NCBI RefSeq assembly: GCF_964213995.1
Contig: NC_135801.1
Coordinates: 28,706,001 to 28,770,000, forward strand
DNA from: Mustelus asterias
Taxonomy: Eukaryota
Direction of reading: 5' to 3'
Length of the DNA: 64,000 nucleotides
In this document: piece after piece, positions 1,878-43,472 of the stretch
Layout: each line of letters opens with the position of its first letter
How positions within the stretch are numbered: position 1 is the first letter of the stretch
Notes under the pieces: model-generated
Seen by the model: only the letters and a program-made list of their open reading frames with translations
What the model was told of the DNA's origin: nothing
The model's database searches: none
Made by a program: the position numbers and the translations under genes

Positions 1878-4800
1878 TAAGGCCATCTGCTCCGCCATTC
1901 AATAAGATCTTGGTTGATCTTTTCGTGGACTCAGCTTCACTTGCCCGCCCGCTCACCATAACCCTTAATTCCTTTACCGTTCAAAAATGTATCTATCCTT
2001 GCCTTAAAAACATTCAATGAGGTAGTCTCAATTGCTTCACTGGGCAGGGAATTCCACAGATTCACAACCCTTTGTGTGAAGAAGTTCCTCCTCAACTCAG
2101 TCCTAAATCTGCTTTCCCTTATTTTGAGGCTATGTCCCCTAGTTCTACTTTCACCCGCCAGTGGAAACAACTTCCCTGCTTCTATCTTTTCTATTCCCTT
2201 CATAATCTTATATGTTCCTATAAGATCTCCCCTCACGGCATGGTAGCACAGTGGTTAGCACTGCTGCTTCACAGCTCCAGGGACCTGGGTTCGAATCCCG
2301 GCTCGGGTCGCTATCTGTGTGGAGTTTGCACATTCTCCCTGTGCCTGCGTGGGTTTCCTCCGGGTGCTCCAGTTTCCTCCCACAGTCCAAAGATGTGCAG
2401 GCTAGGTTGATTGGCCATTCTAAATTGCCGCTAAGTGTCCCGGGATGCATAGGTTAGAGGGGTTAGTGGGTAAATATGTAGGGATATATGGATAGGGCCT
2501 GGGTGGGATTGTGGTTGATGCAGACTCGATGGGCCGAATGGCCTCTTTCTGCACTGTAGGATTCTATGATTCTTCTGAATTCCAATGGGTATAGCCTCAG
2601 TCTCTCCTCATAAGCCAACCCTCTCAACTCCGGAATCAACCTAGTGAATCTCCTCTGTACCCCTTCCAGTGCCAGTATATCCTTTCTCAAGTAAGGAGAC
2701 CAAAACTGTACACAGTCGTCCAGGTGTGGCCTCACCAGCACCTTATACAGCTGCAACATAACCTCCTTGTTTTTAAACTCCATCCCTCTAGCAATAAAGG
2801 ACAAAATTCCATTTGCCTTCTTAATTATCTGCTGCACCTGCAAACCAACTCCTTGAGATTCCTGCACAAGGACACCCAGGTCCCTCTGCACAGCAGCATG
2901 CCGCAATTTTTTATCGTTTAAATAATAGTCCATTTTGCTGTTATTCCGACCAAAATGGATGACCTCACATTTACCAACATTGTACTCCATCTGCCAGACC
3001 CTCGCCCACTCACTTAGATTATCTATATCCCTTTGCAGACTTTCAACGTCCTCTGCACACTTTGCTCTGCCATCCATCTTAGTGTCATCTGCGAATTTTG
3101 ACACACTACACTTAGTCCCCAACTCCAAATCATCTATGTATATAGTAAACAATTGCAGTCTCAACACTGATCCCTGAGGCACACCACTAGTCACTGATCG
3201 CCAACCAGAAAAACACCCATTTACCCCATTCTTTGCTTTCTGTTAGTTAACCAATCCTCTTTCCATGCTAATACATTACCCGCAACACCGTGCGGCTTTA
3301 TCTTATGGAGCAGTCTTTGGTGCGGCACCTTGTCAAATGCTTTCTGGAAATCCAGATACACCACATCCACAGGCTCTCCATTGTCCACTGCACATGTAAT
3401 GTTCTCAAAAGATTCCAACAAAATTAGTCAAACATGACCTTTCCTTCATGAACCCATGCTGCGTCTTACCAATGGGACAATTTATATCCAGATGTCTCGC
3501 TATTTCTTCCTTGATGATAGATTCAAGCATTTTCCCTACTACAGAAGTTAAGCTAACCGGCCTATGGTTACCTGCCTTTTGTCTACCTCCTTTTTTAAAC
3601 AGTAGCGTCACATTTGCTGTTTTCCAATCTGCGGGAATCACCCCAGAGTCCAGTGAATTTTGGTAAATTACCACTAGTGCATTTGCTATTTCTCCCGCCA
3701 TCTCTTTTAGTACCCTGGGATGCATTCCATCAGGACCAGGAGACTTGTCTACCTTTAGCCCCATTAACTTGTCCAACACTACCTCTTTCGTGATAATGAT
3801 AGTTTCTAGGTTCTATCCTGCCTTCCTGTCATCAATTTTTGGCATGCTATTTGTGACTTCCACTGTGAAGACCGACACAAAATACCTGTTCAATGCCTCA
3901 GCCATTTTCTCATTTCCAGTTATTACAGTCCTCTAAAGGACCAATGTTTACTTTCGCTACTCTTTTTCATTTTATATATTTGTAGAAACTTTTGCTCTTT
4001 TTATATTCTGAGCTGGTTTACTCATAATCCATCTTACTTTTCTTTATAGCTTTTTTCGTGGCTTTCTGCTGCCCTTTAAGATTTCTCAATCCTCTAGGTT
4101 CCCACTAATCTTTGTCACTTTGTATGCATTTTCTTTCAATTTCATATCCTCCTTTATTTCCTTAGATATCCATGGCTGATTATCTCTTTTTCTCCAGCTC
4201 TTCCTTATCACTGGTATATACTTTTGCTGAGCACTGTGAAAGATTGCTTTGAAAGTCCTCCACTGTTCCTCAATTGTCCCACCAGAAAGTTTTTGCTCCT
4301 ACTCTACCTTAGCCAACTCCTCCCTCATCCCTTTGTAGTCTCCTTTGTTTAAGCACAAGACACTGGTATTGGATTTTACCTTCTCACACTCCATCTGTAT
4401 TTTAAATTCAACCATACTGTGATCGCTTCTTTCAAGAGGATCCCTAACTGCAAGATCATTAATTATTCCTGTCTCATTACACAGGACCAGATCTAGGATA
4501 GCTTGCTCCCTTATAGGTTCCATTACATACCATTCAAGGAAGCTATCAGGGATACATTCTATGAACTCCTCCTCAAGGCTGCACTGACCGACCTGGTTTG
4601 ACCAATTGATATGCAGATTAAAATCCCCCATGATAATTGCTGTACCATTTTTACATGCATCAGTTATTTCTTTGTTTATTTCTCACCCCCCCCCACCCCA
4701 TGATGTCATTATTTAGTGGCCTACAGACTACGCCTATTAGTGGCTTTTTCTCCTTACTATTTCTAATTTCCACCCAAATGGATTCAACTTTTTTCCATAG

Positions 4801-5549: not shown

Positions 5550-7052
5550 CTCATAGCAACCAATCACAGCCTTCTCACCGAATGGCCAATCAGGGCCGTG
5601 TAAAGTGAACCAATCAGGGAACCGTAAAACCGTCCCTTCAGCAACCGTTTCCCCCTCCCCCTCACGCGGCCCGCCCCCCGCTCACGCCCCGCTTCCCGCC
5701 CACGGCTCACGCTCCGCCCCCCCTGCGCCTTCACGCCCCGCCCCCCCTGCGCCTTCACGCCCCGCCCCCCCTGCGCCTTCACGCCCCGCCCCCCCTGCGC
5801 CTTCACACCCCGCCCCCCCTGCGCCTTCACACCCCGCCCCCCCTGCGCCTTCACACCCCGCCCCCCCCGCGCCTTCACACCCTGCCCCCCTGCGCCTTCA
5901 CACCCCGCCCCCCCTGCGCCTTCACACCCCGCCCCCCCTGCGCCTTCACACCCCGCCCCCCCTGCGCCTTCACACCCCGCCCCCCCTGCGCCTTCACACC
6001 CCGCCCCCCCTGCGCCTTCACACCCCGCCCCCCCTGCGCCTTCACACCCCGCCCCCCCTGCGCCTTCACACCCCGCCCCCCTCTCACTCCCCGCCCCCCT
6101 CTAACACCCCCGCTGACGCCCCGCCCCGCTCACACACCGCCCCCGCCCCCCCGCTCACGCCACGGCGCGTTCACACTCCGCCCCCCCCCGCTCACACCCC
6201 GCCCCCCCCCCGCTCACACCCCGCCCCCCCCCCGCTCGCACCCCGCCCCCCCCCCGCTCGCACCCCGCCCCCCCTCCGCTCGCACCCCGCCCCCCCCCGC
6301 TCGCACCCCGCCCCCCCCCGCTCGCACCCCGCCCCCCCCCCGCTCGCACCCCGCCCCCCCCCCGCTCGCACCCCGCCCCCCCCCCCGCTCGCACCCCGCC
6401 CCCCCCCCCGCTCGCACCCCGCCCCCCCCCGCTCGCACCCCGCCCCCCCCCCCCTCGCACCCCGCCCCCCCCCGCTCGCACCCCGCCCCCCCCCCCGCTC
6501 GCACCCCGCCCCCCCCCCCGCTCGCACCCCGCCCCCCCCCCCCGCTCGCACCCCGCCCCCCCCCCCGCTCGCACCCCGCCCCCCCCCCGCTCGCACCCCG
6601 CCCCCCCCCCGCTCGCACCCCGCCCCCCCCCGCTCGCACCCCGCCCCCCCCCCGCTCGCACCCCGCCCCCCCCCCGCTCGCACCCCGCCCCCCCCCCGCT
6701 CGCACCCCGCCCCCCCCCGCTCGCACCCCGCCCCCCCCGCTCGCACCCCGCCTCCCCCGCTCGCACCCCGCCCCCAGTCTCCACTCACTCGTCCTCCTCC
6801 CCCGCCCTCTTGCATCCTTCCCCCATCCTACCGTGCGCTCATATCCCGCCCCCTTTCCGCTTGCCCCACCCCCGTCAGCCTCCTGCCCCGCCTGGCGCAT
6901 CCTCCTGTTCCGCTTACCCCGGCCTTCCGAGCCTCCTGCTCCGCCCCGCCGTCCTCCAGCCCCTTCCACGCGCGGTTCGGCGGTGACGCGTTTCCGGCGG
7001 GTTGTTGGCCTGGTGACGGTGAACCACCGCGGTCGGAAGTTTGTGCGGAGCG
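5550..7052 (+). promoter_or_regulatory. CpG-rich promoter and probable non-coding exon 1 of ELMOD2
   Basis: CCAAT at 5560, 5586 and 5610; many GC boxes; ETS-like CGGAAGT at 7034-7040; TGACG half-sites near 6985 and 7014; candidate donors GCG|GTCAGT (7052/7053) and TGT|GTGAGT (7060/7061). The first coding exon has an acceptor only 3 nt before the ATG, so an upstream exon is required. Confidence 0.65.
5700..6776. repeat. C-rich GC-box minisatellite in two zones: 24-bp ccccgcccccctgcgccttcacac (about 5715-6080), then about 20-24-bp ccccgc(c)n-gctcgca (about 6150-6776)
   Basis: Directly visible periodicity; produces the spurious Pro/Gly-rich ORFs. Confidence 0.95.
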
Positions 7053-8371
7053 GTCAGTGTGTGAGTGAAGCGCTGCCTCCCCGGAGCGGTCAGTGTGTGA
7101 GTGAAGCGCTGCCTCCCGGAGCGGTCAGTGTGTGAGTGAAGCGCTGCCTCCCCGGAGCGGTCAGTGTGTGAGTGAAGCGCTGCCTCCCCGGAGGGGTCAG
7201 TGTGTGAGTGAAGCGCTGCCTCCCGGAGCGGTCAGTGTGTGAGTGAAGCGCTGCCACCCCGGAGCGGTCAGTGTGTGAGTGAAGCGCTGCCTCCCCGGAG
7301 CGGTCAGTGTGTGAGTGAAGCGCTGCCTCCCCGGAGCGGTCAGTGTGTGAGTGAAGCGCTGCCTCCCCGGAGCGGTCAGTGTGTGAGTGAAGCGCTGCCT
7401 CCCCGGAGCGGTCAGTGTGTGAGTGAAGCGCTGCCTCCCCGGAGCGGTCAGTGTGTGAGTGAAGCGCTGCCTCCCCGGAGCGGTCAGTGTGTGAGTGAAG
7501 CGCTGCCTCCCCGGAGCGGTCAGTGTGTGAGTGAAGCGCTGCCTCCCCAGAGCGGTCAGTGTGTGAGTGAAGCGCTGCCTCCCCGGAGCGGTCAGTGTGT
7601 GAGTGAAGCGCTGCCTCCCCGGAGCGGTCAGTGTGTGACTGAAGCGCTGCCTCCCCGGAGCGGTCAGTGTGTGAGTGAAGCGCTGCCTCCCCGGAGCGGT
7701 CAGTGTGTGAGTGAAGCGCTGCCTCCCGGAGCGGTCAGTGTGTGTGAGTGAAGCGCTGCCTCCCCGGAGTGGTCAGTGTGTGTGAGTGAAGCGCTGCCTC
7801 CCCGGAGCGGTCAGTGTGTGTGAGTGAAGCGCTGCCTCCCCGGAGCGGTCAGTGTGTGAGTGAAGCGCTGCCTCCCCGGAGCAGTCAGTGTGTGAGTGAA
7901 GCGCTGCCTCCCCGGAGCGGTCAGTGTGTGAGTGAAGCGCTGCCTCCCCGGAGCGGTCAGTGTGTGAGTGAAGTGCTGCCTCCCCGGAGCGGTCAGTGTG
8001 TGTGAGTGAAGCGCTGCCTCCCCGGAGCGGTCCGTGTGAGTGAAGCGCTGCCTCCCTGGAGCGGTCAGTGTGTGTGAGTGAAGCGCTGCCTCCCCGGAGC
8101 GGTCAGTGTGTGTGAGTGAAGCGCTGCCTCCCCGGAGTGGTCAGTGTGTGTGAGTGAAGCGCTGCCTCCCCGGAGCGGTCAGTGTGTGAGTGAAGCGCTG
8201 CCTCCCCGGAGCGGTCAGTGTGTGAGTGAAGCGCTGCCTCCCCGGAGCGGTCAGTGTGTGAGTGAAGCGCTGCCTCCCTGGAGCGGTCAATGTGTGAGTG
8301 AAGCGCTGCCTCCCCGGAGCGGTCAATGTGTGAGTGAAGCGCTGCCTCCCCGGAGCGGTCAGTGTGTGAGT
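7046..8371. repeat. 36-bp minisatellite, left array (about 36 units, cggagcggtcagtgtgtgagtgaagcgctgcctccc)
   Basis: Near-perfect tandem units; translates as repeated RSGQCVSEALPP. Confidence 0.97.
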
Positions 8372-9428
8372 ACCTTCCGGTTGGAGGAAGGTAACTAGTG
8401 GCGTGCCGCAGGGATCGGTACTCGGGCCGCAACTGTTTACCATTTATATAGATGATCTGGAGGAGGGGACGGAGTGTAGGGTAACGAAGTTTGCAGACGA
8501 CACAAAGATAAGTGGAAAAGTGAATCGTGTGGAGGACGGAGAAGATCTGCAGAGAGATTTGGACAGGCTGAGTGAGTGGGCGAGGATATGGCAAATGGAG
8601 TATAACGTTGAGAAATGCGAGGTTATACACTTTGGAGGAAATAATAACAAATGGGATTACTATCTCAATGGAAACAAATTAAAACATGCTACCGTGCAAA
8701 GGGACCTGGGGGTCCTTGTGCATGAGATGCAAAAGCCCAGTCTGCAGGTACAACAGGTGATCAAGAAGGCAAATGGGATGTTGGCCTATATTGCGAGGGG
8801 GATAGAATATAAAAGCAGGGATGTCTTGATGCACCTGTACAGGGCATTGGTGAGGCCGCAGCTGGAATACTGTGTGCAGTATTGGTCCCCTTATATGAGG
8901 AAGGATATATTGGCATTGGAGGGAGTGCAGAGAAGGTTCACCAGGTTGATACCGGAGATGAGGGGTTTGGATTATGAGGAGAGGCTGAGGAGATTGGGTT
9001 TGTACTCGTTGGAGTTTAGAAGGATGAGGGGGGATCTTATGGAGACTTATAAGATAATGCGGGGGCTGGATAGGGTGGAGGCGGAGAGATTCTTTCCACT
9101 TAGTAAGGAAGTTAAAACTAGAGGACACAGCCTCAAAATAAAGGGGGGTCGGTTTAAGACAGAGTTGAGGAGGAACTTCTTCTCCCAGAGGGTGGTGAAT
9201 CTCTGGAATTCTCTGCCCACTGAGGTGGTGGAGGCTACCTCGCTGAATATGTTTAAAGCGCGGATGGATGGATTCCTGATCGGTAAGGGAATTAAGGGTT
9301 ATGGGGATCAGGCGGGTAAGTGGTACTGATCCACGTCAGATCAGCCATGATCTTATTGAATGGCGGGGCAGGCTCGAGGGGCTAGATGGCCTACTCCTGC
9401 TCCTATTTCTTATGTTCTTATGTTCTTA
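8372..9428 (+). mobile_element. Young 5'-truncated CR1 LINE inserted in the minisatellite
   Basis: Uninterrupted RT C-terminal ORF (SGVPQGSVLGP, KFADDTK, ending GKWY* at 9329), CR1-type 3' UTR, (TTCTTATG)n tail; TGAGT at 8367-8371 and 9429-9433 is a possible target-site duplication. Confidence 0.95.
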
Positions 9429-10605
9429 TGAGTGAAGCGCTGCCTCCCCGGAGCGGTCAGTGTGTGTGAGTGAAGCGCTGCCTCCCTGGAGTGGTCAGTG
9501 TGTGTGAGTGATGCGCTGCCTCCCTGGAGTGGTCAGTGTGAGTGAGTAAAGCGCTGCCTCCCCGGAGCGGTCAGTGTGAGTGAAGCGCTGCCTCCCTGGA
9601 GTGGTCAGTGTGAGTGAGTAAAGCGCTGCCTCCCCGGAGCGGTCAGTGTGAGTGAAGCGCTGCCTCCCTGGAGTGGTCAGTGTGTGTGAGTGAAGCGCTG
9701 CCTCCCTGGAGTAGTCAGTGTGTGTGAGTGAAGCGCTGCCTCCCCGGAGCGGTCAGTGTGTGAGTGAAGCGCAGCCTCCCCGGAGTGGTCGGTGTGTGAA
9801 TGAAGCACTGCCTTCCTGGAGTGGTCAGTGTGTGAGTGAAGCGCTGCCTCCCTGGAGCGGTCAATGTGTGAGTGAAGCGCTGCCTCCCCGGAGCGGTCAG
9901 TGTGAGAGTGAAGCGCTGCCTCCCCGGAGTGGTCAGTGTGTGAGTGACGCGCAGCCTCCCCGGAGCGGTCAGTGTGAGAGTGAGGTGCTGCCTCCCCAGA
10001 GCGGTCAGTGTGTGAGTGAGGAGCTGCCTCCCCGGAGTGGTCAGTGTGTGAGTGAAGCGCTGCCTCCCCGGAGTGGTCAGTGTGTGAGTGACGCGCAGCC
10101 TCCCCGGAGCGGTCAGTGTGAGAGTGAGGTGCTGCCTCCCCAGAGCGGTCAGTGTGTGAGTGAGGAGCTGCCTCCCCGGAGTGGTCAGTGTGTGAGTGAA
10201 GCGCTGCCTCCCCGGAGTGGTCGGTGTGTGAGTGAAGCACTGCCTCCCCGGAACGGTCAGTGTGAGAGTGAGGAGCTGTCTCCCCGGAGCGGTCAGTGTG
10301 TGAGTGAAGCGCTGCCTCCCCAGAGTGGTCAGTGTGTGTGTGAAGCGCTGCCTCCCCGGAGCGGTCTGTGTGTGAGTGAAGCGCTGCCTCCCCGGAGCGG
10401 TCAGTGTGTGAGTGAAGCTACCTTCCCGGAGTGGTCAGTGTGTGAGTGAAACGCTGCCTCCCCAAGCGGTCAGTGTGTGAGTGAAGCTACCTTCCCGGAG
10501 TGGTCAGTGTGTGAGTGAAACGCTGCCTCCCCGAGCGGTCAGTGCGTGAGTGAAGCGCTGCCTCCCCGGAGCGGTCAGTGTGTGAGTGAGGAGCTGGCTC
10601 CCCGG
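9429..10605. repeat. 36-bp minisatellite, right array (about 32 more diverged units)
   Basis: Same unit with more variants and a 144-bp higher-order duplication. Confidence 0.96.
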
Positions 10606-22200: not shown

Positions 22201-25200
22201 CATTTTTGTAATTGTTTAAAAAGTTTTATTTTAAAAGATGTGGTGATTAATCATAATGGAAACTTTAACCAACATTCCACATATTTGTCAGGGCCAGATT
22301 GGTTGCTCAGCAGTAGTTATTACTCGCGTCCTATGGACATAACTGATAGACTGGGTCCTTGGCAGGTGGTGAGGGAGCCAACAAGAGGAAAAAGCCCTTA
22401 TCCTCTCCAATCTACCTGTTGCAGATGAATCTATTTATGACAGTATTGATATGAGTGACAACTGCACAGTCCTTGTGGAGACAAAGTCGCATCTTTACAT
22501 TGAGGACCCTCCATCATGTGTAGCACTACCAGTATGTTAAACGGACTAGATTTAAAACTGATCTAGCAACTCAAAAACTGGGTGTCCGTCAATACGTGGG
22601 GTTACAAGGAAAGGGCCTGGGTAAGATGCTCTGTCAGAGAGTCGGTTAATCTAAATCCTGAAGTGACAGTCAGGCACAGGAGGGTAATAACAGTCAACAT
22701 TGGCAAATCACCATCAAAAACCCCACAGATTGCAAGCTGCTCGAAAAAGATGTATCTGATTTTTCTTTTTTCTTTTTCAATTCCAGTTGTGAAATTACTT
22801 GGAGCACTGAGACACAAGATCTTACGTAAAATGGCATTTAAAATTCCTTTATGGATAAATTTTTTTCCTTAGGTTCAAGTTAAATTTACAGACTTGCTTG
22901 CTCCAAATCTCTGGCTTTAAAAAACTCTTTGCTGATATAGAAAACCTACGAAAGCAGCCATTCGATTCTTCGAACAAGCAGCATGAAGATATGCTAAAAA
23001 AGGTACATTAATTGTATTTGATGTCCCACTGTTTACTTGGGCAACCTTGCCTTGCGAGTCTGCAATATTGTAGGGATTTATTTTGCGAAGGTAAAGGATA
23101 AAAATCAGTTGCATTGTTCTTTTCATTATGGCCCAAAATTTGCAGGGGTTTTGATGGTGAACTCCTGGCATTTGTCATCATCATCCCTCTGAATCTGAGC
23201 TCAATTTCAGGATTTAGTGCAACTGAGCTTAATGCAGAGATTCTGAAGTTGTGGGATCTGTCATCATGGGATACCTACTTCTCTCCTGTTTTGCTGAAGT
23301 GAAATAACTTGCTGGGAAGGACATTTCATTTGGAAAGGATATATTGTGCACTGTTCCAAAAATTATTCCACTGGGTTCAAAGCAGAGGATGGAATCATTT
23401 TCCAGGGGTTTTTTTTGCTGGCAATGCACTGATATTAGGCAGCCATTTGAAACAAGTTTTAAGAGAATAATGCGTCATTTATTTTGCGAGTGTTTTTAAA
23501 GGTGAGTGCCATTTGTATTTTTATAATCGTTTTTTCTCCTTATGGGCATAAAAAATCTTGAAATTCTTCTTGGATGAAAAATGGCAACTTTATTCAAGCA
23601 AAGAATCAGTGGAGCATAGGAACAGGAGAAGGCCATTCAGTCTCTTGAGCCCACTCCGCCATTCAATAAGATCATGGCTGATCTGTGGCCTAAATCCTTG
23701 TACCTGCCCTAGGCCCATATCCTTTGGTACCCCTGCTCAGTAAAAAATTGTCTATCTCAGACCTGGTGTGATTGAGCAAATAATTGTCTCTCTGGAACTA
23801 TTCCATTGTCACCCACTTGTCATCAGCCTTGAAACAGAAGCAATTCTCTGTAACCCCTCCATGTTCCTTTAATAATTACAATTTGAGCTAAGAATCTTTT
23901 CAGTTGTAGTTTCCTTGTTCGGTGTATCGTCACATTTGTTATTTACTTCTTTCTTCTGTGACTTTTAGTTGTGGAATTTGCTGATGCCTCATGTGCACCT
24001 GGAGTCGAGAATCACCAAACAATGGGGTGACATTGGGTTTCAAGGTGATGATCCTAAAACTGACTTCAGAGGCATGGGAATGCTGGGGTTACACAATCTA
24101 GTGTAAGTTTTCGTAGAGTATACTCGTAGCCCCAAATATTTTTAACACATCGGTTAAGTAGCATACTGATCTGTAATTTATGTTCTGACATCTATTGAAA
24201 AAATTGCCCTGCTATGGAGTTCTTGCACTCCAAAACATAATTTTTTGGCCTCCGCGTGCAGCTCCATCCACGACGGGCGGCCAGGGAAAGCTGGCGAGAG
24301 GAAGACTGATACCAGTATGTCCACTTCAACAATCACCTGATCTGATTATTTTTACATCTTGGAATCCCTTCTGTTTAAAATCCTTAACTTTTCCTTTCTT
24401 AATATAGCCTCAAGGTTAAACTTCTGTGCACGACAAAACTATGAGTATGGGGGAAGTTAAAATGGGACAGAGTGCAGGGTTTCCCAATTGTGCTGTGCTG
24501 CACTTGCACAGGCCACTTTTAATCCTGGGGTTTTGGGAGGCTTGCGACCTCCACCACAAGCATTCAAGCTAGTAAAATTAGGCCATATGTGTTTCTAAAG
24601 TATCTCGCTATGTAAGGTTCGTGCAGTGAGTTGATATGTTAGAGTACCTTTATCAATCTCCTCATCAAACTTATTTAACGGCAAAAGACTTGATTGGTTG
24701 TGATTTTCTTTTTGTGTGGAGAGGTGCTCCGAGCAAAGCTGAATTGATGGAAATATGCTTTGATGGCAGGGTAGACATTTTGTTCATGAGAGGCCAAGGG
24801 TGACAATTTTTATTGTTAGAATTATTTAGCTTCCTGAATATCTACTATTATTTAAAAGTCCTGGTACGTTGATTGCCTTTGATAAACCTGGGAAAGCAAA
24901 GTTTCGCCTTATTTGTTCTGATTTAAAAAATGTGTTGCAATTGATTTTTCCTAGTGCCGATTGTTTGGAGGTACGAGGTGTTTTGCTCCATAGTGACAGG
25001 CTAAACTCAGATTTTGAATGGCATGTGCACTTTTTAATTTGTTATCGTTAAAACTTTTAGATTCTTTGGAGACCACTACACAGAAACAGCTCGCCAGACT
25101 CTTTCACATTCAACTCACCCCAAGATAGGGTAAGTGAAAGTATATTAAGTTGTTTTTACACCACCACATTCATTTTATAAAGAAAAGACTAACAAAGATA

Positions 25201-28200
25201 TATGTTAACTCTTTGGCCATGATGGCACCTCACTTTCAAAGGAGCAAGAAAGCTCCATCTAAATATCAGCTAAAATATAAAACTAGCAGCACTGATTTCT
25301 TACAAAGCTTTCAGCTGAGCTGTGAGCAAATTTTTGAACAACCTCAATTGTAAAAGCAGATATGATTTTATGAAATCCTGCTTTTCAGTTTGGTTTTAAG
25401 TGGAAGACCAGATGCTGGATGAACTACATTTTTAAAGAAGGAAAAGAATAAAATCTTGAATTACAACTGCCAGTTTAGTCATTGGATGGTCATCAAATTT
25501 GGGGTGTGGATCCTTGCTATAGATTTATCATTCAATTTGGAGGTGATCAGGTCATACTCTAGGTGTCTGGCAATGGGCATTTCCATTTATTCTGATTTAA
25601 TTGTTTTAATTCAATAGACCAAATGAACAGAATAATTCAACTGTTTTCACTAGAACTCTGGGGACAGGAGTTATTAAAGTTGAATTATTTTATCAACCAG
25701 TGTATGTAAACAGAGCCACTAAGGATTGGAGTGGAAACATGATATAAAGTCTCGAATGCATAGGAAATGTGCTAGCAAAATTACGATTAAAAATCTCGTT
25801 TATCATGTAAAATAAAACATAAAAGGTTGACAATGCTTCAGCAGTTCTGGCAATACGTATGGAGAGAGAAACAGAGTTGAGGTTTCAGGCTGTCAGCCTT
25901 TCAACGGAACATCAAAAATCTCTTAATGGTTAGATGGATGTTAGCCCTTTTCAATTTCTACTTTGTCCAGAAAGTGACTTGTGTTAAACTGCTTGTTTCA
26001 AAAATGAAAAATATTTTTCTTTTGTAAGTTTTAGAACATAGTCATGAGATTTAAATCAGTTTGACAGTTAAAGCTACGATACGTTATATTCACGATTCCA
26101 GATATTCCTATGCTATTGTCGGAATAAATCTCACTGAAATGGCTTATAGTATGATGAAGAGTGGCTTACTAAAGACTCATTTCTACAACCTGGTTCCTGG
26201 AGTTCCACAGTTGCAACATTTCCATCAGTTTTATTGTAAGTATTTTAAAATATTTCCTTTCCACAGCTAATGCTTGCTTCTCGTTAGTGCAGAATACATT
26301 CTGTTTGAGAAATTGCTATGATTATTTTCATAGTTATCAATGTCAGATCTCCAATTTCGTATGAACTGTTTGAAATTAAATTATTCCCTGTGGTCAATTT
26401 AAGTCAGCTGTATAAAAAATAATGCCTGACATGAGACTCCCGAAACAAACACTCTGCTCGGAGCTTCGGCATGGGAACCAAGCCTAAGAGGGCAGAGAAA
26501 ATGCTTCAATGCGCTCAAAGCCTCCGTGCAAAAGTGCAACATCCCCACCAACACCAAGGAATTCCTGGCCAAGACCACCCAAAGTGGGGGGGGAGAAGCA
26601 TCTGGGAAGAAGCTGAACATCTCAAGTTCCATCGCTGAGAGCAAGGTGAAACCAAGCATTGACAGTGAAAGCAGCATGTGGCTACCCAGGCCCCTGCCTG
26701 CCCACCCACCCACCCACTTCTCCAACTGCCGTCTGCCCCACCTGTGATGGAGGCTGTAGGTCAGCATTGAATCCTCAGTCACCTCCTCAGTCCTAAGCTC
26801 ATTTTTAGTGTGGAAGCAAGTCATCCTCGACTTTGCAGGACTGCCTTAGAAGATAGAAAATAGTTAATTTCTAGCAATAGTAATTATCTGACAGCTGCAG
26901 CGTATTCCTATCCCCTGTGGTAATATATCGGACTTACTTTTGCAGCGTATCTCTCTATTCCTATGATGACTGACTGCAACATTTCTCTGTCCCTAAAGTG
27001 ATGTATACGACTGAAACACATTCCTTTCATGGTTCACAATACATTTGCCAAATGATACCCCCTCTGATGCTTCAGAATCATGAATTCAAACCTCTCCAGA
27101 GCAGCTGGTGAAATCTAAATTAAATTAATGGATAAATCTGGAATACAATGCAAGTCTCATTAAGAATGGTCAAGAAATTACAAAATTGTCATTAAAATCC
27201 CATCTAGTTCATGAAAGACCTTTATAGAGGAGGAAATCTCCCATCCTTATCTAGCTTGACCTGCATGTGACTCCAGATTCACAGCTACCCTTTGAAATGG
27301 CATAAAACATCACTCAACGGCGTCAAAATGCTACAGTGAAAAGTAAAGCATTGAATACCTACACCTCATGGACTGCAGAGGTTCAAGAAGGTCATCCACC
27401 ACCATCTTCTCAGGGGCAATAAGGAATGGGCAGCAAATGCCGGCCTTGCCAGTGACACTCTTGTGCCAAGAATGAATATTTAAAAAAAGCTTTGATGAAA
27501 GTTTAAAATACATTTTATACTAAAGAACTTTGGCTTGATAGATTAATGAAATACTTCCCTTCAGTCCGCCTACCCATTCTTCAGTCTTTCCACAGCTGAA
27601 GTGAGCATCTGTTCGTCCACAAAAATACAGCAGAAGCAACCTTGCAGATTAGTCATCAACATTAGTTTGCCATAAAGTAAAATCTTTCCCATTGCTGTTT
27701 AGCTATCTATGCCGTTTGAGCTTTGCTATTAAATTAATAGATTATTTTTATTGTATATTATGCAATATGTGCAGTATTTGCATAAATATTATTTGGTGGT
27801 CATTAACCCATTATTAATGAGCATGTTTGTTTATATCTTTTAAATATAGAAAAAGCATTACTTAATGTTTAGTAATATACATTCCTATTGCTCCAACTAT
27901 TTTGGAGACCCTATTGAATCAGATATTTTACTTAAACATAGTACATATGGGCTGATTTTGTGGCATTCCAACCCTGCAGTGGTTTAAAACACCATTTGCT
28001 TATAATACTTTCCAGTATAATTCAGTAAGTAGTGCTTTCAGACAGTTTGCTATATCATAGACACTATATAAATGCAAGTTATTGTTGTAATTTGATGACT
28101 GGCTCAAAATTACATTCTTCTTTTGTTCCCAGTGATAGATCTTGGGCAAAACTTGAATTTCCTTTAAAGCTCTCTCGTATTTTCTTAAACCATTGTTTAA

Positions 28201-31945: not shown

Positions 31946-32678
31946 AGTCACAGAAACTAGAAGCAGGAGTAGGCCATTCAGCAACTCGAGCCTGCTCCGC
32001 CATTCATCTTGACCATGGCTGATCATCAAATTCAATATCCTGAATCCCCCTTCCTCCCATATCCCTTGGTCCATTTAGCCTCGAGAGCTATATCTAATTT
32101 CTTCTTGAAATCAAACAACTTTTTGGCCTTAACTACATTTGGTGGTAGTGAATTCACAGATTCACCACCCTCTGGGTGAAGAAATTTCTCCTCACTTCAG
32201 TTCTAAAAGGTTTACCCCTTATGCCCAAACTATGACCCCTAGTTCTGGACTCCCCCACCATTGGGAACATTTTTTCTGAATCTACCCTGTCTAGCCCTGT
32301 TAGAATTTTAGAACTTTCTATGAGATCCCCTCTCACTCTTCTAAACTCCAGTGAATATAATCCTAACCGACTTCGTCTCTCCTCATATGACAGACCTGCC
32401 ATTCCAGGAATCAGCCTGGTAAACCTTTGCTGTACTCCCTCTACAGCAAGGACATCCTTCCTCAGATAAGGACACAAACTGCACATAATACTCCAGGTGT
32501 GACCTCACCAACACCCTATACAATTGCAGCGAAACATCCCTATCCTTATACTCAAATCCTCTCGCTATGAAAGCCAACATACCATTTGCCACCTGTGCCT
32601 GCACGCTTACTTTCACGAGGACTCCAAGGTCTCGTTGAGTATCCACCTCCCTCAATTTACACCATTCGAGTAATAATT
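31946..32678 (-). mobile_element. CR1 3' fragment, inserted in a GC-rich MITE-like element spanning about 31700-33240
   Basis: QRDLGVLV..ANGMLAFIARG..RRNFFTQRVVNL and 3' UTR. Confidence 0.9.
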
Positions 32679-34333
32679 TGCTCACACTCCCCCCCCCCCC
32701 CCCCCCCACCACCTCCTGATCATCAGTCCCTTCTGCCCACTCATCGCCTCCCCCCTTCCCAGTTGGAGCAGCCACCCACCCTCAAACCCCCCAATGCCTG
32801 TCGCCAGAATCCCCTGCTCCTCCATCTGCTCCCAGCCCATAACCACATCTGAATGAATGGTAGATTCACATCTTGGTGAACCTGCTTCTCTGGACTCTAA
32901 ACATCGATACGCTACGTGGAACAAGCCCAACGTGAATGGTGTCTCCCTGCTTCCTCGTAGTCTGCACGCCGCCGCCACTGTGGAGAATAAAATGTAGGTT
33001 TTGCCAGCGCAGCATCACATACCCTCTCACTGGATATGCAGCGAGTGCGAAAGTTCCAGAGTGAGTGCTGATTAATGGCATGCTAATGTATTAAAATGAG
33101 CTCTCTGTGGTCCTGTGATGTGTTTCACCAGTCCACTGGCAAGATTGGAACTTGGAAACTCACCAAAGCAAATTGCGCTTTCCAAGCTTTGAGCATGCAC
33201 CACCATTCCCACAGTGTGTTTCGGCTTAAAATCACCCCCTTGTGTCTATTAGAGGATGGTCACTAAGCTGTTGGCCTAATGCAGACCCAGCTGACTTTTC
33301 CAGGGTAAAAGTGGCCCATATGAATTTACTTGATAGATGAGCTGCATGATGTAACTGCAATTGGTACTACCACAGGAACATGTTGTCTCATTGCTGCATC
33401 ATTCATTCTCAAGATAAATCTCAGCATCAGTATACCTCTGCTGGAATAAGGCTGAAAGGACTAGCTTTGTGTTTAAATTGCTTGATTACCAAATAATTCC
33501 ATCTATATCAAATGATTCTTAATGGGCATTCTAGTAATGTTGCATGCAAGTTTGAACTCGTTCATGTGATCCTCAGTAGATGCAGAAGTGATGAAGTGGA
33601 ACATTCGATTTTTAATGGTATAGTGTTTTCTCTCAGAATAATTTCCTGATCTTTGATATCCTTTCACTACCGTTGAGATTAACAGCTTTTCAACTCTTTA
33701 AGACAATGTGCTGAATTTCTCTGGCCTACTGGGAGGCAGGCGGGCCGGCATATTGCAGGGGAAATTGTCAGGAGGGGGGAGTGATGTCTTCCTGCAGACA
33801 TGGCATAGTGCTGGTGACAGGAACCTTAGTGGCATGGTCACACACTGGGTAGCCAATTGAACCACTTCATGCCCCAGTTAAAGGCCACTTCCAATGCAGC
33901 CCTCTGGTATTATGCCTGTATAAAGAGGGTCTATCACCTTGGAGGGGCTGTTGTGCCGATTCACTATAGTTAGGATTAAATTATGAAGACAAGTGCCACA
34001 AACTTGCACTAAATTGCATGTTTCAGCTAAATAAAGGAGTTGATACTTTCTATTCACTCTATTTCCTATGGTGGGAGTCCAGATCAAGGACCCATAACCT
34101 TTAGCACCCTTTAAGGGGGGTTGTCTATTTAAAGGGCACTTCATGGCCCACAGATACCCCCTTTGTTGATGGCTACCTGCAACCTAAAGTGCAGCTTATG
34201 TCCCACAACTGCCCTGCTCACCCCACCCCCAATCTAGTTCCTGGTAACGGCTGTTGTCCTGGCAACGGCTGTTGTAAACTAACCTGCAAGCTCTAGCGAG
34301 TATCTCAGCCTGATGATGCAGCTCAGCATTGGT

Positions 34334-36054: not shown

Positions 36055-36164
36055 TTTATTCCATCTCACCAAATGTAACATGAAAAGCTGATATATTTAG
36101 AAAATTGTAAATTATGCTTCTATTAAAACTGATTTTGTAAAAATACTGACAAATAGTATTTATT
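36055..36164 (-). terminator. Candidate UCP1 polyadenylation signals
   Basis: AATAAA on the minus strand at 36164-36159 and 36060-36055, 0.5-0.6 kb past the stop. Confidence 0.5.
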
Positions 36165-36654
36165 GATATGTGGCTGTCAATGCAACAAATGGCGTTTAAG
36201 AGACAAGATTGAAATTTTCAAAACAAACTATTTGAACATTAGTTTTTCCTTAGGCTTACAGATGCTAAATCTTAGCAATAAAGTGCATATTACTCAGTGG
36301 TATATTTTTTTAAAATATGAATTCCGTCAGATGGCATTAAATTGTTTTACACAGCATATCCTATGAAAAATAAAGTGCTTCTTTTTGACTGCTCATATAC
36401 TGGTTAAAAACATTTGCCCTGAATATGTTTTCTAAGATGTAATGAATATCACCAGATTTTGAAATGCAATTGAATTAAATCACTGGTATGCTGGTCATGG
36501 AGTTTCATTCCACACAAAATAATCCCATAACGAAAATGATCACATTCATAATACAAGTTCTCATGTCCATAATGCAGGCCTGGCAGTGCAGAGAGGTCAT
36601 TCTATGATCCAGCTGTAATGTGTGGCCAACACCAGGGAATCATACGGCACAATC

Positions 36655-36754
36655 CTAACTTTGTCTGGTCATCATCATTGCTCTTTTCAGCTGCTCATAA
36701 GACACAAACATGATCACGTTCCAGCTCCCAAGGCGCAGATAAGAGGGAAGGAAC
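36655..36754 (-). CDS. UCP1: UCP1 coding exon 6
   Basis: tgtag| [32 protein letters not shown] (TAG at 36657-36655). Confidence 0.94.
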
Positions 36755-39700
36755 CTACAAGAGAAATGAACATTAGCAGTGAAACCAGAATATTCAGCAT
36801 GCAGTGGGACAGGAAAAGAGGATTAGTAATGAATGACTGCTATGTTGGTATTATTTTCATTAAGGGAAAACAGGATGCTTTTGGAACAATAATGTTGAAT
36901 ATCCAAAATCATATAGCTGAGAAAAATACATACGAGCTAAGTAAGAGTCCTTCTAAAATGAACGGGTAGGGCAATAAAAATAGGGAAAAGAAACAAATTA
37001 TACAAAGTTGCAGGCAAATAGAAATGAATCAATGTAGGGAGAAAAGTAGGAAATTGCTAAAAATGGTTTCAAAAGGATAGTGGGCTGAATTTGCCCACCA
37101 TGGGAATTGTAATGGGCAGGACAGGACAATGCAAAGGTCCGTTGACCTCGGGTGGGATTTTCCGGTCTTGGGATGGTGTGGCTGGAAAATCCCACCCAGT
37201 GGCTAAATAAAGAGGAACCTAGAAATGAGCTTAGTCAAAAACATTAAACTCGATGTTTCAGAAGTCTGGAAGTTTAGAATCTGGAAACCTGGAGGTTTCT
37301 CCCCAAAAAGCTGCTAAAACGAGGGCCGGGATTTTCCAGCCCCCATGTGGCAGGTTTTCCTGTGGCAGAGGCGGCTCACCATGACCTCAGGTCATTAATT
37401 TAGCTTTCCCTTTACTAGATAAGAGCCCCGGCTTGTTCAGCCTTTCTTAATAGTTCTAACCTCTCATTTCCAGGATCATCATTGTGAATCCTTTTTGCAC
37501 AGGCAGGGGCATGAAGGGTAACAGAACAATGGCAGATAGGTGGCGTCAAGTTATAGAGCAGCCATGATTTAACAGAATAGTGGAACTAGCTCAAGGAGCT
37601 GAATGGTCTACTTTCTTTCCTATGTCCCTATTGTTGTAAAGGATCAATTAAAGAAGTTACATCACAAATATGACAAAAACTAGAAGGTAGTTAATTGAAA
37701 TGCATCTTTTGTAGCATTATCCACTAAAATTATTTATTAGCAATTCTAATATGTTATCTAATTCTTGTACTTCCAGTATCCTTGAGGGTTTTCAAAGCTG
37801 ACTATGCAGAGATACTTGAAATGTTGAGGGTCTCAAGACTAGTAAATCCCCTGGGCAAGATAGAATACATTCTAGGGTCCTGATGGATACTAGGGTAAGA
37901 TATTTAGGTGGTTATTACAAGAGAATTATTGAGCATTTTACAGATTCTGTAGGACTGGAAACAGGCAAAGTTATTTTGGAAGGACAACAGAACTGCCAAG
38001 AGAGACTAGGTCCATTATTTGATGAAAGGTAGAAGAGTTGTACTGGCTGGAGAAATGCCTATATAACTAAAGCATAAGGAATAACCAGCATAGATTTAAA
38101 AGAGGACAATCTTACCAACTAAACCTCATTTACTCTCTTTAGCTTATTAGGAAATTAACTAGATGGTTTATGATATCATTCAAAAGAACAAAGAACAATA
38201 CAGCACAGGAACAGGCCCTTCGGCCCTCCAAGCCCGCGCCGCTCCCCGGTCCAGGATTGAATCCTGAATCCAGGATCCCCGCCCAATTTTCCAGCCCATC
38301 TACATCCTAATATCCTATCCACCGAGCTGTCCCTCACAGCTACGATGCTTTGTTCATCACAACCTATTAACTCACCCCCACCCCCCCATTCCAGACCATG
38401 TTAATCTCTATTTAAACTTTCAGGGAGTTGTTGACCAAGTTGTTGACCAAGTTAATGAAAGACTTCTAACTGAACTAAAATCCACGGTGACCTAAGAGAG
38501 AATATGGAATGAGATAAGAAACCTCTTAGAAAATAGAAAAGAAAGAATACTTAGACATGCAAGGTGGGGTGGGGCTAGGGGAGTCAAGGAGAGATCTCAT
38601 CCATGTAAGAGATCTGGATAGCATGTTAAAATTCTCATCTTTGGACTCAGCAAAATCATCTAGAGTTGAAATGTCTCTTGCTTTGCTTAAAACCAGGGTG
38701 GATATTTAATATGTAAATATTCCCGATTTCTCAGCTGATTAAACTGGCCTCTGGTTGAGCCAGAAAGCAGGATTTCCCTAGTTTTGATCCCCAGTCTGTG
38801 CTGAGTTTGTTGATCTCAGCCTGGCCAACAGGGATGTTAGTGCAACTGGATCCCAGTGCCTCTAGACTGGGGAAAGAAAAATTAACCAGGGGTTCCTACT
38901 CCTGAAACTGTCCCTGCTAGAACCAGGAATGGACAGGATCAAGTTCAACTGTAATACCCCCAGACTTGAATCACCTATAGATACTCAATGATTACATTCA
39001 TACAATCCTGTACAACTGGCCCCAAGGAGGAAGATAAATGGAGAAGAAAAGAACAATTACATGTAGATTTACTTCACTGTCAATGAAGTTGAATCGAATA
39101 AAGTTACCCTTTATAAAAGGCTGTTGGTCCTTCTTTAACCAGCATAGTCCAAGCACAATTCAGTGCACTTTTATAATGTCCGGGAGCAGAGTTCATGTAT
39201 CTTGTCTTTACTACATCAACAGGAGAAGCTGCTACTGTTGTGCAAAACCCTGCGCCAAAAGCCGAGAGGAAGTGGCACGGAAAGTTATCTGCAAATTGCA
39301 ACAAGTTCTTATCAATTTCAGAGTTTGTTACTGTTCAAGTGAAGGCATGACATTATTTTCAACTTGTACCCCCTCTGCCCATATCATGAGTAATATTACT
39401 GCTTCTGTGACAATTAAGAAGATGCGTCACATTTTTTTGCGACTCGTGGGTTACCAGATTTGCTTGTTTCAGATAACAGCACTATGGTTACAAGTGAGTT
39501 ATTTCAAGAATTCATACAAAAGAACGATACATGCCATGTGTGTACTGCACTGTTTCATCCAGCTTCAAACAGTCAACAGAGAGAGCTGTCCAAACTCTGA
39601 AGGAGGGAGTGGAGAGGATGTCAGGTGATACTTTGAGAAAAAAGCTCTCAAGATTTTTATTCCAGCATCGTATCACACCACAATCCGAAGCCGGGCTCTC

Positions 39701-42700
39701 TCCAGTGGAATTGTTGTCAGGTAGAAGGCCAAAGTCTCACCTGAATCTGCTTCAACCAGATTTCAGAGCAAAGTGGGCAGGAGACAACAGAAGCAGAAGG
39801 AGGGACATAACTACCATGCCAAAGAGAGGCAGTTCAACACAGACAGTCAGGTCTACCTCAGGACTTTTGATAGTAACCAGAGATGGTTGCCGAAAATCAT
39901 TTTAAACCAAAGGGGTCCAATATCTTGGGTCATGAGACTGCAACATGGAAGAGTTGTTCGCAGACACCAAGATCATATATTCATTTACGGTATGACCTCA
40001 GGTCAGAAAAGGTTTCGGAGTCAGCAGTCATTACTGCTAACATGGCAGAAGATAATGCTGCTTGTGGGCATTCACCAGAAAGTTGTTCCTGAGGTTCAAG
40101 GTTTGCCAGTTGACTCTGCTGGAGTAATGGAAGAGGAATGTTCATTTACAGATTCACAATCTACCTCTTCACGTGTGATTCCAGATCAACCGTTACAAGA
40201 ACAAGCTGCCAGAGGTAGTAGTAGGGGCAGGTACAATTTTGTCTTTTAAAAAGCGTTTAGATAGTTACATGGGTAAGATGGGTATAGAGGGATATGGGCC
40301 AAATGCGGGCAACTGGGACTAGCTTAGGGGTTTAAAAAAAAGGGCGGCATGGACAAGTTGGGCCGAAGGGCCTGTTTCCATGCTGTAAACCTCTATGACT
40401 CTAAGATTCACCAGTGGCGTTGCGTAGATCACAATGCAACCACAATGCTCCTGGCAGACTTTTTTATAGTTAAGACATCACTTTTGTTATATTTCTGTTC
40501 TAATAGATGATTGAAATTTAGGGGAGGAGGTGTTATAGACTCTCATTTTGAATACAGAGTGTTCTTACAAGCCTTCTCTCCTATGTAACTGATTTATGGC
40601 GTTTGCAGACTGTTCTGGACACGTGCGGGTTTTCGAGGGCTTTTTGGTCTGCAATAGAGTGTTCTGCGATGGGGGGGGGGGGGGGTCGCGGAGCTGGCCA
40701 GCAATCGAGAGGCCGGCAGTGCAGGCTACTGCGCATGCACACTGATCTCGGCGCTGACAGATCAGCGCATGCACAGTGGCCCACTCAGCGCTATGCTGCC
40801 GGCCTCTCTGGTGGGAATAGGCCCCGCCTATTAGGTTTTTTTTGCGTGATTCATGCTAGGACACTCTGATGCACGGAGTGTGGGAGATTCATTTTGAAAG
40901 TCCCGCTGAAAAGAACCAGCGCGATTTACTCCAGTGTTTACGCGAATTCGACACTATCCCACCACTGTGAGCCCACCTGTTAAAAGTTGCTTCCTCAGAA
41001 TGGCCTCTTTAATGAGGTCGTAGGTTACGAGCTCAGAACAGTTGACAATGGCATTTCGAGTAATGTTGGGAAAAGTTCCTGTAAGGGACGACAAACAAGA
41101 TGCGATTAACAAAGTGGAAATGTCACCAGATTCAGGATGGGATAGAGGGATCAATGTTGCACACTACCTTTCCAAAGTCCTCGAACTCCTTCTTCTTTGG
41201 CTATTAGTTTATAGGCCTGAAGAGTGCCATTGTAACGTTTCGGAGCACCACAGAGGTTCCTTTGTGCCTGGAAACGAACTTTAACCACATCAGTGGGCTG
41301 TGCCAGTATTACCGCCAGTCCTCCTGTAGTACACCCTGCCAGGAGACGGGTTGCCATACTGGCATCTAAGAGAGAGACAGAATTAAATCAGCATTTCACA
41401 TATTATGCCAAAATCATACTACATAAGAAAACTTTTTTAAAATTTGTTTATGGGATGTGGGGATCACTGGCTGGACCAGCATTTATTGCCCATCCCCAAG
41501 TGCATTTAAGAGTTAACCATATTGCTGTGGGTCTGGAGTCAATATAGGCCAGACCAGGTAAGGGTGTAGCCCTAAAGGACATCAGTGAACCAGATGGGTC
41601 TTTACTACAATCAACAATGGTTTTGTGGACATCATTAGACAATTAATTAATTGGGCAGCACGGTGGCACTGTGGTTAGCACTGCTGCCCTCACAGCACCA
41701 GGGACCCGGGTTCAATTCCCAGCTTGAGTCACTGTCTGTGTGGACTTTGCACATTCGCCCTGTGTCTGCATGGGTTTCCTCCGGGTGCTCTGGTTTCCTC
41801 CTGCAGTCCAAAGATGTGCAAGTAGGTGGATTGGCCACGCCAAATTGCCCCTGAGTGTCAGGGGGACTAGCTAGGGTAAATGCATGGGGTTATGGGGATA
41901 GGGCCTGCGTGAGATTGTGGTCGGTGCAGACTTGATGGGCTGAATAGCCTTCTTCTGCACTGTGGGATTCTATAATTCCAATTTTTTATTGAATTCAAAT
42001 TTCACTATCTGCCGTGGTGGTCCTCAAATCCAGGTCCCCAGAGCATTCTCCTGGGTATCTGTATTACTTGTCCAGTGACTATACCACTGCCTCCCCTTTC
42101 ATTCCAAACTGTTTTATGGTAAATGTTTGTGTTATTCAACAGGAGATATAATTTGGGCTTGAAACGTTAACTCGGTTTCTCTCTCTACAGATGCTGCCAG
42201 AGCTTTTCCAGCACTGTTTTTATTTCAGATTTCCAGCATCTGCAGTATTTTGCATTTATATAATTTCCAGTTGTCCGCAATCCATACAATGTAAACATCA
42301 TTAAACAGGAAGAACGGGCATTTCTTATTAAAACAAAACCGAAGACGGCAACTGCACTTCTTTAAACAACATTTGCTTTTAACTCATCAGCAGGCACTGA
42401 TTTCCAAACCGTTGTTTCACACAAGGCATTCATTGTACTAACTTTTACCCCTGAATGATTTGCACACAGTAAATACTTGTTTAAAATGATGTTACTGCCG
42501 GTCAGTTAGTACTCACGGTCACTCCCTCTGGTGTAAAATTGTTTCACAGAGTCATAGAGACCAATTCTTATTGAAGCGAAGCTCATCTGTCTCTGAAGGC
42601 CGGCCACGAGGCCGCTGTACAAACTCCTCGCTCCTTCGGTTTTGATTATTGTAGCCACTGTTCCCCAAACGCCGCGGTATCTGACACTTTTGGCAACTCC

Positions 42701-43472
42701 GGCCCTGGGAGATCCTGAAGTCTCTCCTTGAACCTAAACCACATGGCTGAGTTAAACTTGGGGCAACAAGAGAATCTTTAAAGCGAGCAGAACTGATGCA
42801 TTTTATAAACTCTTAATTTCTGTGAAATTCCTTAACTTTGGTCTCCCTTCAAAATAATTAATCAAATCCAAAGATGTGCAGGTTCGATGGATTGGCCATG
42901 CTAAATTGTCTCCTTAGTGTCCAAAAAATGTGCAGGTTAGATGAATTGGCCATGATAAATTACCCCCTTAGTGTCCAAAGATGTGCAGGTTAGGTGAATT
43001 GGCCATGTTAAGTTGCCCCTTAGCGTCCAAAGATGTGCAGGATAGGGGGATTGGCCGTGGTAAATTTACCCTTAATGTCCAAAGATGTGCAGGTTAGGTG
43101 AATTGGCTATGTTAACTAAATTGCCCCAAATGTTGAAAAATGTGCAGGTGGTAAATGTGTGGGGCTAGGTAACATACTCTGTCAGAGTCGGTGCAGATTC
43201 GATGGGCTGAATGGCCGCTTCTGCACTGTAGGGATTCTATGATTCTAAGTGCAAAGAAAATGAGTCTTTAAACCAAACACATACAATTGGTCTTAGAATA
43301 TGCTTTAGAGAGAATAGAAGTGATTATTCTGGGGTGTGTTTGTTACCTGTAATCTGACTTTGGCCGTGTCCAGGGGGAATGTAATAAGATCAGCGAAACA
43401 GGCCGCTGTACCAGCGCTCATGAACCGCACACCAGGCGTTGGGGGAACGCTTGAAGGTTTCAGTCCCACCAT
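36655..43472 (-). CDS. UCP1: Mitochondrial uncoupling protein 1 (SLC25A7), spliced CDS: complement(join(36655..36754,39108..39288,40977..41078,41168..41365,42517..42733,43347..43472)), 924 nt, 307 aa
   Basis: Three carrier signatures ([30 protein letters not shown]); nucleotide-binding Arg motifs [25 protein letters not shown]; six coding exons with GT-AG and consistent phases. UCP1 rather than UCP2/3 is inferred from the known vertebrate ELMOD2-UCP1-TBC1D9 synteny. Confidence 0.92.
37780..38560 (+). mobile_element. Very old CR1 fragment with a younger CR1-type 3' end inserted (about 38180-38400, -)
   Basis: [17 protein letters not shown] remnant; (caaagaa)n tail in reverse. Confidence 0.55.
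39108..39288 (-). CDS. UCP1: UCP1 coding exon 5
   Basis: tgcag| [59 protein letters not shown] |gtaac. Confidence 0.95.
39375..40560 (+). mobile_element. Gypsy/Ty3-like LTR retrotransposon remnant (integrase to PPT) in a UCP1 intron, with a CR1 3' end inserted at about 40219-40403
   Basis: Frameshifted integrase [45 protein letters not shown]; polypurine tract aggggaggagg followed by TG at 40531. Confidence 0.8.
40600..40953. mobile_element. GC-rich interspersed repeat; related copy in opposite orientation at about 63770-64000
   Basis: gacagatcagcgcatgcacagtggcccactcagc matches the reverse complement of 63785-63830. Confidence 0.65.
40977..41078 (-). CDS. UCP1: UCP1 coding exon 4
   Basis: cttacag| [33 protein letters not shown] |gtgggc; follows an 89-bp intron. 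Confidence 0.95.
41168..41365 (-). CDS. UCP1: UCP1 coding exon 3
   Basis: cttag| [65 protein letters not shown] |gtagtg. Confidence 0.95.
41653..41977 (+). mobile_element. SINE, tail type A, nested in a type C element
   Basis: Full head and tail; taatt on both sides. Confidence 0.88.
42517..42733 (-). CDS. UCP1: UCP1 coding exon 2
   Basis: ttag| [72 protein letters not shown] |gtgagt. Confidence 0.95.
42866..43247 (+). repeat. Headless type A SINE with an internal unit of about 53 bp amplified 5-6 times
   Basis: tccaaagatgtgcaggttaggtgaattggccatg..aaatt.cccttagtg starting near 42867, 42920, 42974, 43026, 43077 and 43132, then the normal tail. Confidence 0.85.
43347..43472 (-). CDS. UCP1: UCP1 coding exon 1 (exon begins 43496)
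   Basis: tatttccag| 24 nt UTR, AAGATGG; [42 protein letters not shown] |gtaac. Confidence 0.95.

Follow-up and report, generated by a model that had tools for sequence, protein, structure and literature searches.

A stop codon shared by sharks and rays ahead of an older end of UCP1 in Mustelus asterias

The UCP1 gene and its two in-frame stop codons

We analyzed a 64,000-nucleotide stretch of the Mustelus asterias genome (contig NC_135801.1, positions 28,706,001 to 28,770,000), hereafter the window, which carries a UCP1 gene on the minus strand. Six GT-AG exons give 939 nt of coding frame. Exon 1 (43347..43472) starts with the ATG at 43472 and is followed by exons 2 (42517..42733), 3 (41168..41365), and 4 (40977..41078), all three with AG/GT borders. 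Exon 5 (39108..39288) matches the loose end, at 36755, of the spliced contigs X3, X12, and X17, and the last coding exon (36658..36754) runs to Ser307 and holds helix 6 and the YEQLK motif of the cytoplasmic network (residues 294-298). The frame contains two stops. A TAG with G as the next base, which is the stop in use, forms codon 308 (36655..36657), and an older stop, TGA, forms codon 313 (36640..36642). The minus-strand reading from 36666 to 36640, AGA CAA AGT TAG GAT TGT GCC GTA TGA, is exactly the one quoted in the original prediction. The four codons between the stops (36643..36654), D-C-A-V, or D-C-A-I in the organisms coded C-G below, would be the former last codons of UCP1 and are now likely untranslated. 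The proximal 3' UTR follows at 36055..36639, with AATAAA at 36164 and 36060, and contig X3 extends about 340 bases past 36480 into it.

The gene was identified as UCP1, as predicted, from its phylogenetic position and its neighbor. In a UCP tree of 47 rows, from which the near-duplicates P0225 and P0235 were left out, the Mustelus protein falls in a chondrichthyan UCP1 clade (99/99) inside UCP1 (99/96) and apart from UCP2/3. About 10 kb downstream, on the opposite strand, ELMO_CED12 matches were found at 23969-24127 and 25995-26255 (plus strand). These ELMO-domain exons likely belong to ELMOD2, lying tail to tail with UCP1; UCP1 is described as adjoining ELMOD2 (and TBC1D9) in an excerpt of PMC3428666. 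Elsewhere in the window, long simple tandem arrays lie at about 5560-10450. Pieces at 2463-3812, 4299-4682, 8370-9329, and 32154-32781 resemble reverse-transcriptase LINE elements.

Residues 1-307 encoded by the window exons are identical to P0121, the NCBI UCP1 of Mustelus asterias (XP_078066747.1), whose annotation therefore already has the TAG as its stop. This 307-aa protein is most likely the normal product. Stops in last exons are not expected to trigger nonsense-mediated decay, and since the TAG lies within the last exon, decay is not expected here. Judged from its sequence, it is predicted to function as a carrier, with all three PX[DE]XX[KR] motifs intact at P33, P138, and P237 and the last (FY)(DE)XX(RK) motif intact at Y294-K298 (YEQLK), at least ten residues ahead of the cut (motif definitions from part of PMC6071544). 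A pseudogene was considered and rejected on the open frame, the intact motifs, and the spliced contigs. In an AlphaFold model of the long white-shark form (mean pLDDT 70), helix 6 spans residues 276-311, with confidence of 80 at residues 291-300, 67 at 301-310, and 54 at 311-312. The helix is thus predicted to reach residue 311, and the tail is not clearly disordered. Reading from the exon 5 donor (39108-39104, minus strand) into intron 5 gives a TAA directly after ...AFYKG. UCP1 isoforms lacking the last exon are present at NCBI for Stegostoma (275 aa), Mobula, Heterodontus, Narcine, and Chiloscyllium, and the human short form of UCP3 is comparable to them.

Stop and sense at the same codon in UCP1 and UCP2

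We checked the TAG in 8 of 21 listed public runs, all of them contigs, in which rare variants are dropped, from close relatives representing seven coded organisms (A-G). Both TAG and TGA were unchanged in all 8 contig sets covering the site, three of which (X3, X12, and X17) contained spliced UCP1 contigs. Set X2 is possibly the source of the assembly itself and thus not independent; the TAG was found in seven further sets, six of them from other organisms. The agreement of the 8 sets rules out a private allele as well as the base-call error that the original prediction had offered as one explanation, and it argues against the polymorphism offered as another. The prediction had also proposed a recent nonsense change, for example from TGG. 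UCP1 of Scyliorhinus, of Heterodontus, and of all seven rays likewise terminates at this codon, and Trp occurs in none of the ten sense states of the chondrichthyan UCP1 alignment, which are Gln, Tyr, Leu, and Val. With the seven further contig sets and with 11 of 21 chondrichthyan UCP1 proteins ending at codon 308, we consider an assembly error, a private allele, or a recent TGG-to-TAG change extremely improbable.

That alignment comprises 21 rows; beyond the close relatives, the position of the stop is read from where the protein sequence ends. The eleven rows ending at codon 308 are Mustelus, one further shark, Scyliorhinus, Heterodontus, and the seven rays. The other ten extend exactly five residues beyond residue 307, to the position of the Mustelus TGA, in keeping with the predicted clipping of five residues. 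They carry Gln-DCAI (Carcharodon, Cetorhinus, and Pristiophorus), Tyr-DRAA or Tyr-DRVA (five carpet sharks), Leu-DCAM (Heptranchias), or Val-DCTT (Callorhinchus); the Gln, Tyr, and Leu codons are each one base away from TAG. Codon 308 is thus a sense codon in 9 of 20 elasmobranch rows, and no row has a stop at another tail codon (0/21). Lamniforms include regionally warm-bodied sharks. A link between the long form and endothermy was rejected: the long form is also found in carpet sharks, the sawshark, and the sevengill shark and therefore does not track warm-bodied lineages. A protein query with the antisense in-register frame returned one weak, unrelated match and no candidate from rays, Heterodontus, or catsharks. 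Among the 80 loci of a metagenome scan (best identity 72%), none was close enough for shark UCP1.

The four codons behind the TAG were recognized as the old UCP1 tail, as had been predicted. The resemblance to the human tail is no coincidence: white-shark UCP1 aligns without gaps to human UCP1 constructs through ...RQ-TMDCA, in an alignment that does not display the final human residue, and sharks with a sense codon end in QDCAI, LDCAM, or YDRAA. The claim that such a tail is ancient held as well: D/E-C-A-like ends occur in Callorhinchus (VDCTT), Heptranchias (LDCAM), Latimeria (LECAA), sturgeon (LECTA), platypus (IDCAA), and human (MDCA).

We surveyed the C-termini of 257 of 276 UCP1-3 proteins, namely those with the last-helix anchor. 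A full tail was present in 214 proteins, and 27 were exactly five residues short while none was four short, which marks the codon after residue 307 as a place where truncation has been tolerated repeatedly. Among cartilaginous fishes, 11 species entries for UCP2 (304 aa), including that of Callorhinchus, stop at this aligned codon, and seven skate and stingray species carry Arg-ESSL in UCP2. The UCP2 stop likely derived from a Trp or Arg codon. The last exon of Mustelus UCP2 (L002, G000:C10) reads VARL-stop-EPSP-stop, one codon shorter than the VARLS-stop of other sharks. Serving as a control from the same genome, it has four further codons between its first stop and another one, and EPSP differs from the translated ray tail ESSL at 2 of 4 residues. 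This drifted tail with its second stop kept shows that such leftovers last. Two further UCP genes lie side by side on contig C10. In the neighboring UCP gene L001, the aligned codon still encodes Trp, and the protein ends in WESS. UCP2 of the frog Pyxicephalus and the bonefish Albula (P0073, P0110, and P0116) is exactly five residues short. Another rearranged tail was seen in the UCP2 protein P0267, which ends in VARLQSSL, two residues under the ray form. P0184, a fish-like UCP1 filed under Vibrio harveyi at NCBI, is likely a contamination.

Conservation of the tail and origin of the stop

The four codons after the TAG were no more conserved than the neighboring 3' UTR. Across organisms A-G, one of 18 nucleotides from TAG to TGA was variable, compared with 12 of 130 in the adjoining UTR (Fisher p = 1.0); these organisms differ too little for such a comparison of sites to separate tail from UTR. 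The sole change between the stops, at 36645 in organisms C-G, is non-synonymous (Val to Ile) and gives them the tail DCAI, the very sequence that lamniforms and the sawshark translate. In the proximal 3' UTR (36480-36639 of the window), organism A differs from B-G at 3-6 listed places per 130 nt, and organisms C-G share a loss of three bases (36633 and 36635-36636) just past the second stop. When steps were counted per codon over the 21 rows, with the further shark row given the tail of organisms C-G, codon 308 required 6 and its neighbors 304, 306, and 312 required 8, 5, and 5, respectively, a comparable turnover. Asp309 did not vary among the 12 rows that have data, and an acidic residue occupies this position in 174 of 214 full-tail UCPs, which indicates that the tail is not free to vary where it is translated. 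The C-terminal Cys of UCP1, which we take to be linked to fatty-acid sensitivity, is replaced in orectolobiforms (Arg), in frogs and lungfish (mostly Tyr), and in teleosts. A literature search on Cys304 and fatty acids retrieved no work. C304 comes up in an excerpt of PMC5395090 solely in the context of cross-linking, and excerpts of PMC10413660, PMC13173328, and PMC5278576 hold nothing on the UCP1 tail under the terms looked up.

By codon parsimony, a stop in the elasmobranch ancestor required 6 steps, a sense codon 7, and a history with no reversal 8, under each of three galeomorph topologies. The margin in favor of an ancestral stop is small (1-2 steps). A neutral codon model with equal weights gave a probability of 0.95-1.0 for a stop at the shark-ray ancestor; this fell to 0.30-0.68 when gains were weighted 3x and reversals 0.2x. 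The species tree and all but two node ages in these codon models are our own assumptions. The two exceptions, 259 and 103 My, are given in part of PMC12361510. At a rate of about 1e-3 per site per My (the best fit at codon 308 with the assumed node ages), the probability of no amino-acid change over 259 My is about 0.05. This value, the DCAI of organisms C-G, and the invariant Asp309 speak against plain neutrality of the tail. The best-fit likelihood of a tail that was neutral while closed was -55.5 and that of an always-coding tail -54.9, a gap of less than one unit that favors neither. Across the assumed rates, the likelihood ratio for an always-coding tail ranged from <0.01 to 7.9 and did not reach 1 in six of the nine parameter sets.

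We favor, with a probability of about 0.55, a single origin of the TAG in the shark-ray ancestor, followed by four re-openings, with the tail as a leftover. In the lineage leading to both sharks and rays, a nonsense change of one base would have created the TAG and removed five residues at the far end of helix 6, and the four former codons with the TGA behind them would persist as a slowly decaying leftover. Such an ancestral stop would likely date to about 259 Mya. Because the second in-frame stop lies five codons on, a change of TAG to CAG, TAY, or TTG would be nearly harmless and restore the long protein. This near-harmless loss of the first stop makes four re-openings possible, which would have occurred in lamniforms (Gln), the sawshark (Gln), carpet sharks (Tyr), and the sevengill shark (Leu).

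The stop could instead have arisen separately, by C-to-T nonsense changes from an ancestral Gln codon (CAG) to TAG two or three times, in rays, Heterodontus, and carcharhiniforms; the short form was perhaps favored, and the tail would be a younger leftover, though in carcharhiniforms no younger than about 103 My. We regard this as a possible but clearly less probable history. It is only 1-2 steps longer, C-to-T changes are transitions, a younger stop would explain the intact DCAI, and the same aligned codon has been clipped independently in UCP2 of cartilaginous fishes, Pyxicephalus, and Albula. A sense codon at all inner nodes has a probability of 0.26-0.63 when gains are favored and reversals penalized, but at most 0.014 under equal weights. 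The Tyr of all five carpet sharks also argues against separate gains, being two steps from CAG and one from TAG.

Translation past the TAG would preserve the tail in another way. In functional readthrough, UAG would be decoded by a near-cognate tRNA on a fraction of ribosomes to yield a 312-aa form with the Cys, selection would keep the tail and its stop, the TGA, and four lineages would have fixed the long form. The tail and TGA intact in all seven coded organisms, the match of DCAI to translated tails, the three-base loss in organisms C-G lying after and not before the second stop, and a likelihood ratio reaching 7.9 when the highest rate was combined with the weakest constraint are consistent with this. 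Like the TGA, which is also the shared end point of the ten long proteins, the TAG is present in all seven close organisms, yet it gives way to sense codons in the nine elasmobranch rows noted above, whereas readthrough stops are described as typically perfectly conserved in an excerpt of PMC5100048. The context is UAG-GAU, not the leaky UGA-C or UGA_CUAG given in part of PMC5868278; that it is no classic leaky context had been noted in the original prediction. Five of five folds downstream of or across the stop, computed with a model that does not cover pseudoknots, were no more stable than shuffled sequences (z +0.34 to +1.14). Together with the lack of excess conservation over the UTR and the likelihood ratios mostly below 1, this leaves readthrough unsupported, and we consider it rather unlikely; the earlier preference for nonsense over readthrough stands on the context, the unconserved first stop, and the lack of structure. 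A bolder version, which we judge unlikely, would have a leaky UAG about 260 My old producing short and long Cys isoforms, with the long form fixed by one-base changes in four shark lineages including lamniforms, and with a corresponding switch in UCP2 at that codon. A-to-I editing, which would turn UAG into UIG, decoded as Trp, and yield the long form from edited mRNA, is very unlikely. Trp is the commonest residue at the aligned position in full-tail UCPs (81 of 214, mostly UCP2/3-type), but no sense codon in the 21 chondrichthyan UCP1 rows encodes it, no stable duplex spans the stop, and no other letter appeared at 36656 in the three spliced contig sets, from which rare variants would have been dropped.

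Significance and comparison with known systems

The stop/sense pattern of shark UCP1 has apparently not been reported previously, while the 307-aa protein itself is already annotated. In the titles and abstract openings searched, a coverage that leaves out most subscription papers, nothing on shark UCP1 ends or UCP readthrough was found. Related sharks provide natural UCP1 pairs that differ in whether the final five residues and the C-terminal Cys are present, which makes the role of the tail directly testable. The locus is also a clear vertebrate case of a single codon that has alternated between stop and sense across long evolutionary times while the former tail can still be read. It cautions, too, against taking conservation behind a stop as sufficient evidence of readthrough in shark DNA, which changes slowly. 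Its interest would be modest unless readthrough or a functional difference were demonstrated.

Compared with human UCP1 (SLC25A7; Pfam PF00153; PDB 8G8W/8HBV), to which orthology was assigned by the tree and the ELMO-domain neighbor in the window, Mustelus UCP1 is like other vertebrate UCP1 in its six coding exons and in a tail aligning to MDCA, but the protein is five residues shorter and lacks the C-terminal Cys. It shares a short second ORF with a conserved second stop with the readthrough genes AQP4, OPRL1, OPRK1, MAPK10, and VDR (in the part of PMC5868278 consulted) and with insect sets (likewise PMC5100048). It differs from these in having UAG-G rather than UGA_CUAG, a first stop that is not conserved, no downstream structure, and no visible bias toward synonymous changes. 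In cartilaginous fishes, UCP2 is cut at this aligned codon as well but is a separate gene with a separate event or events. The general process known as stop-codon shift, or C-terminal turnover by nonsense gain and stop loss, is a further parallel, with a one-base stop gain near the end, an old stop retained a few codons later, and a recognizable tail, as in Mustelus UCP1. Unlike in the general process, codon 308 of UCP1 apparently underwent five or more switches between a stop and a sense codon in elasmobranchs, and the paralogue UCP2 shares the boundary.
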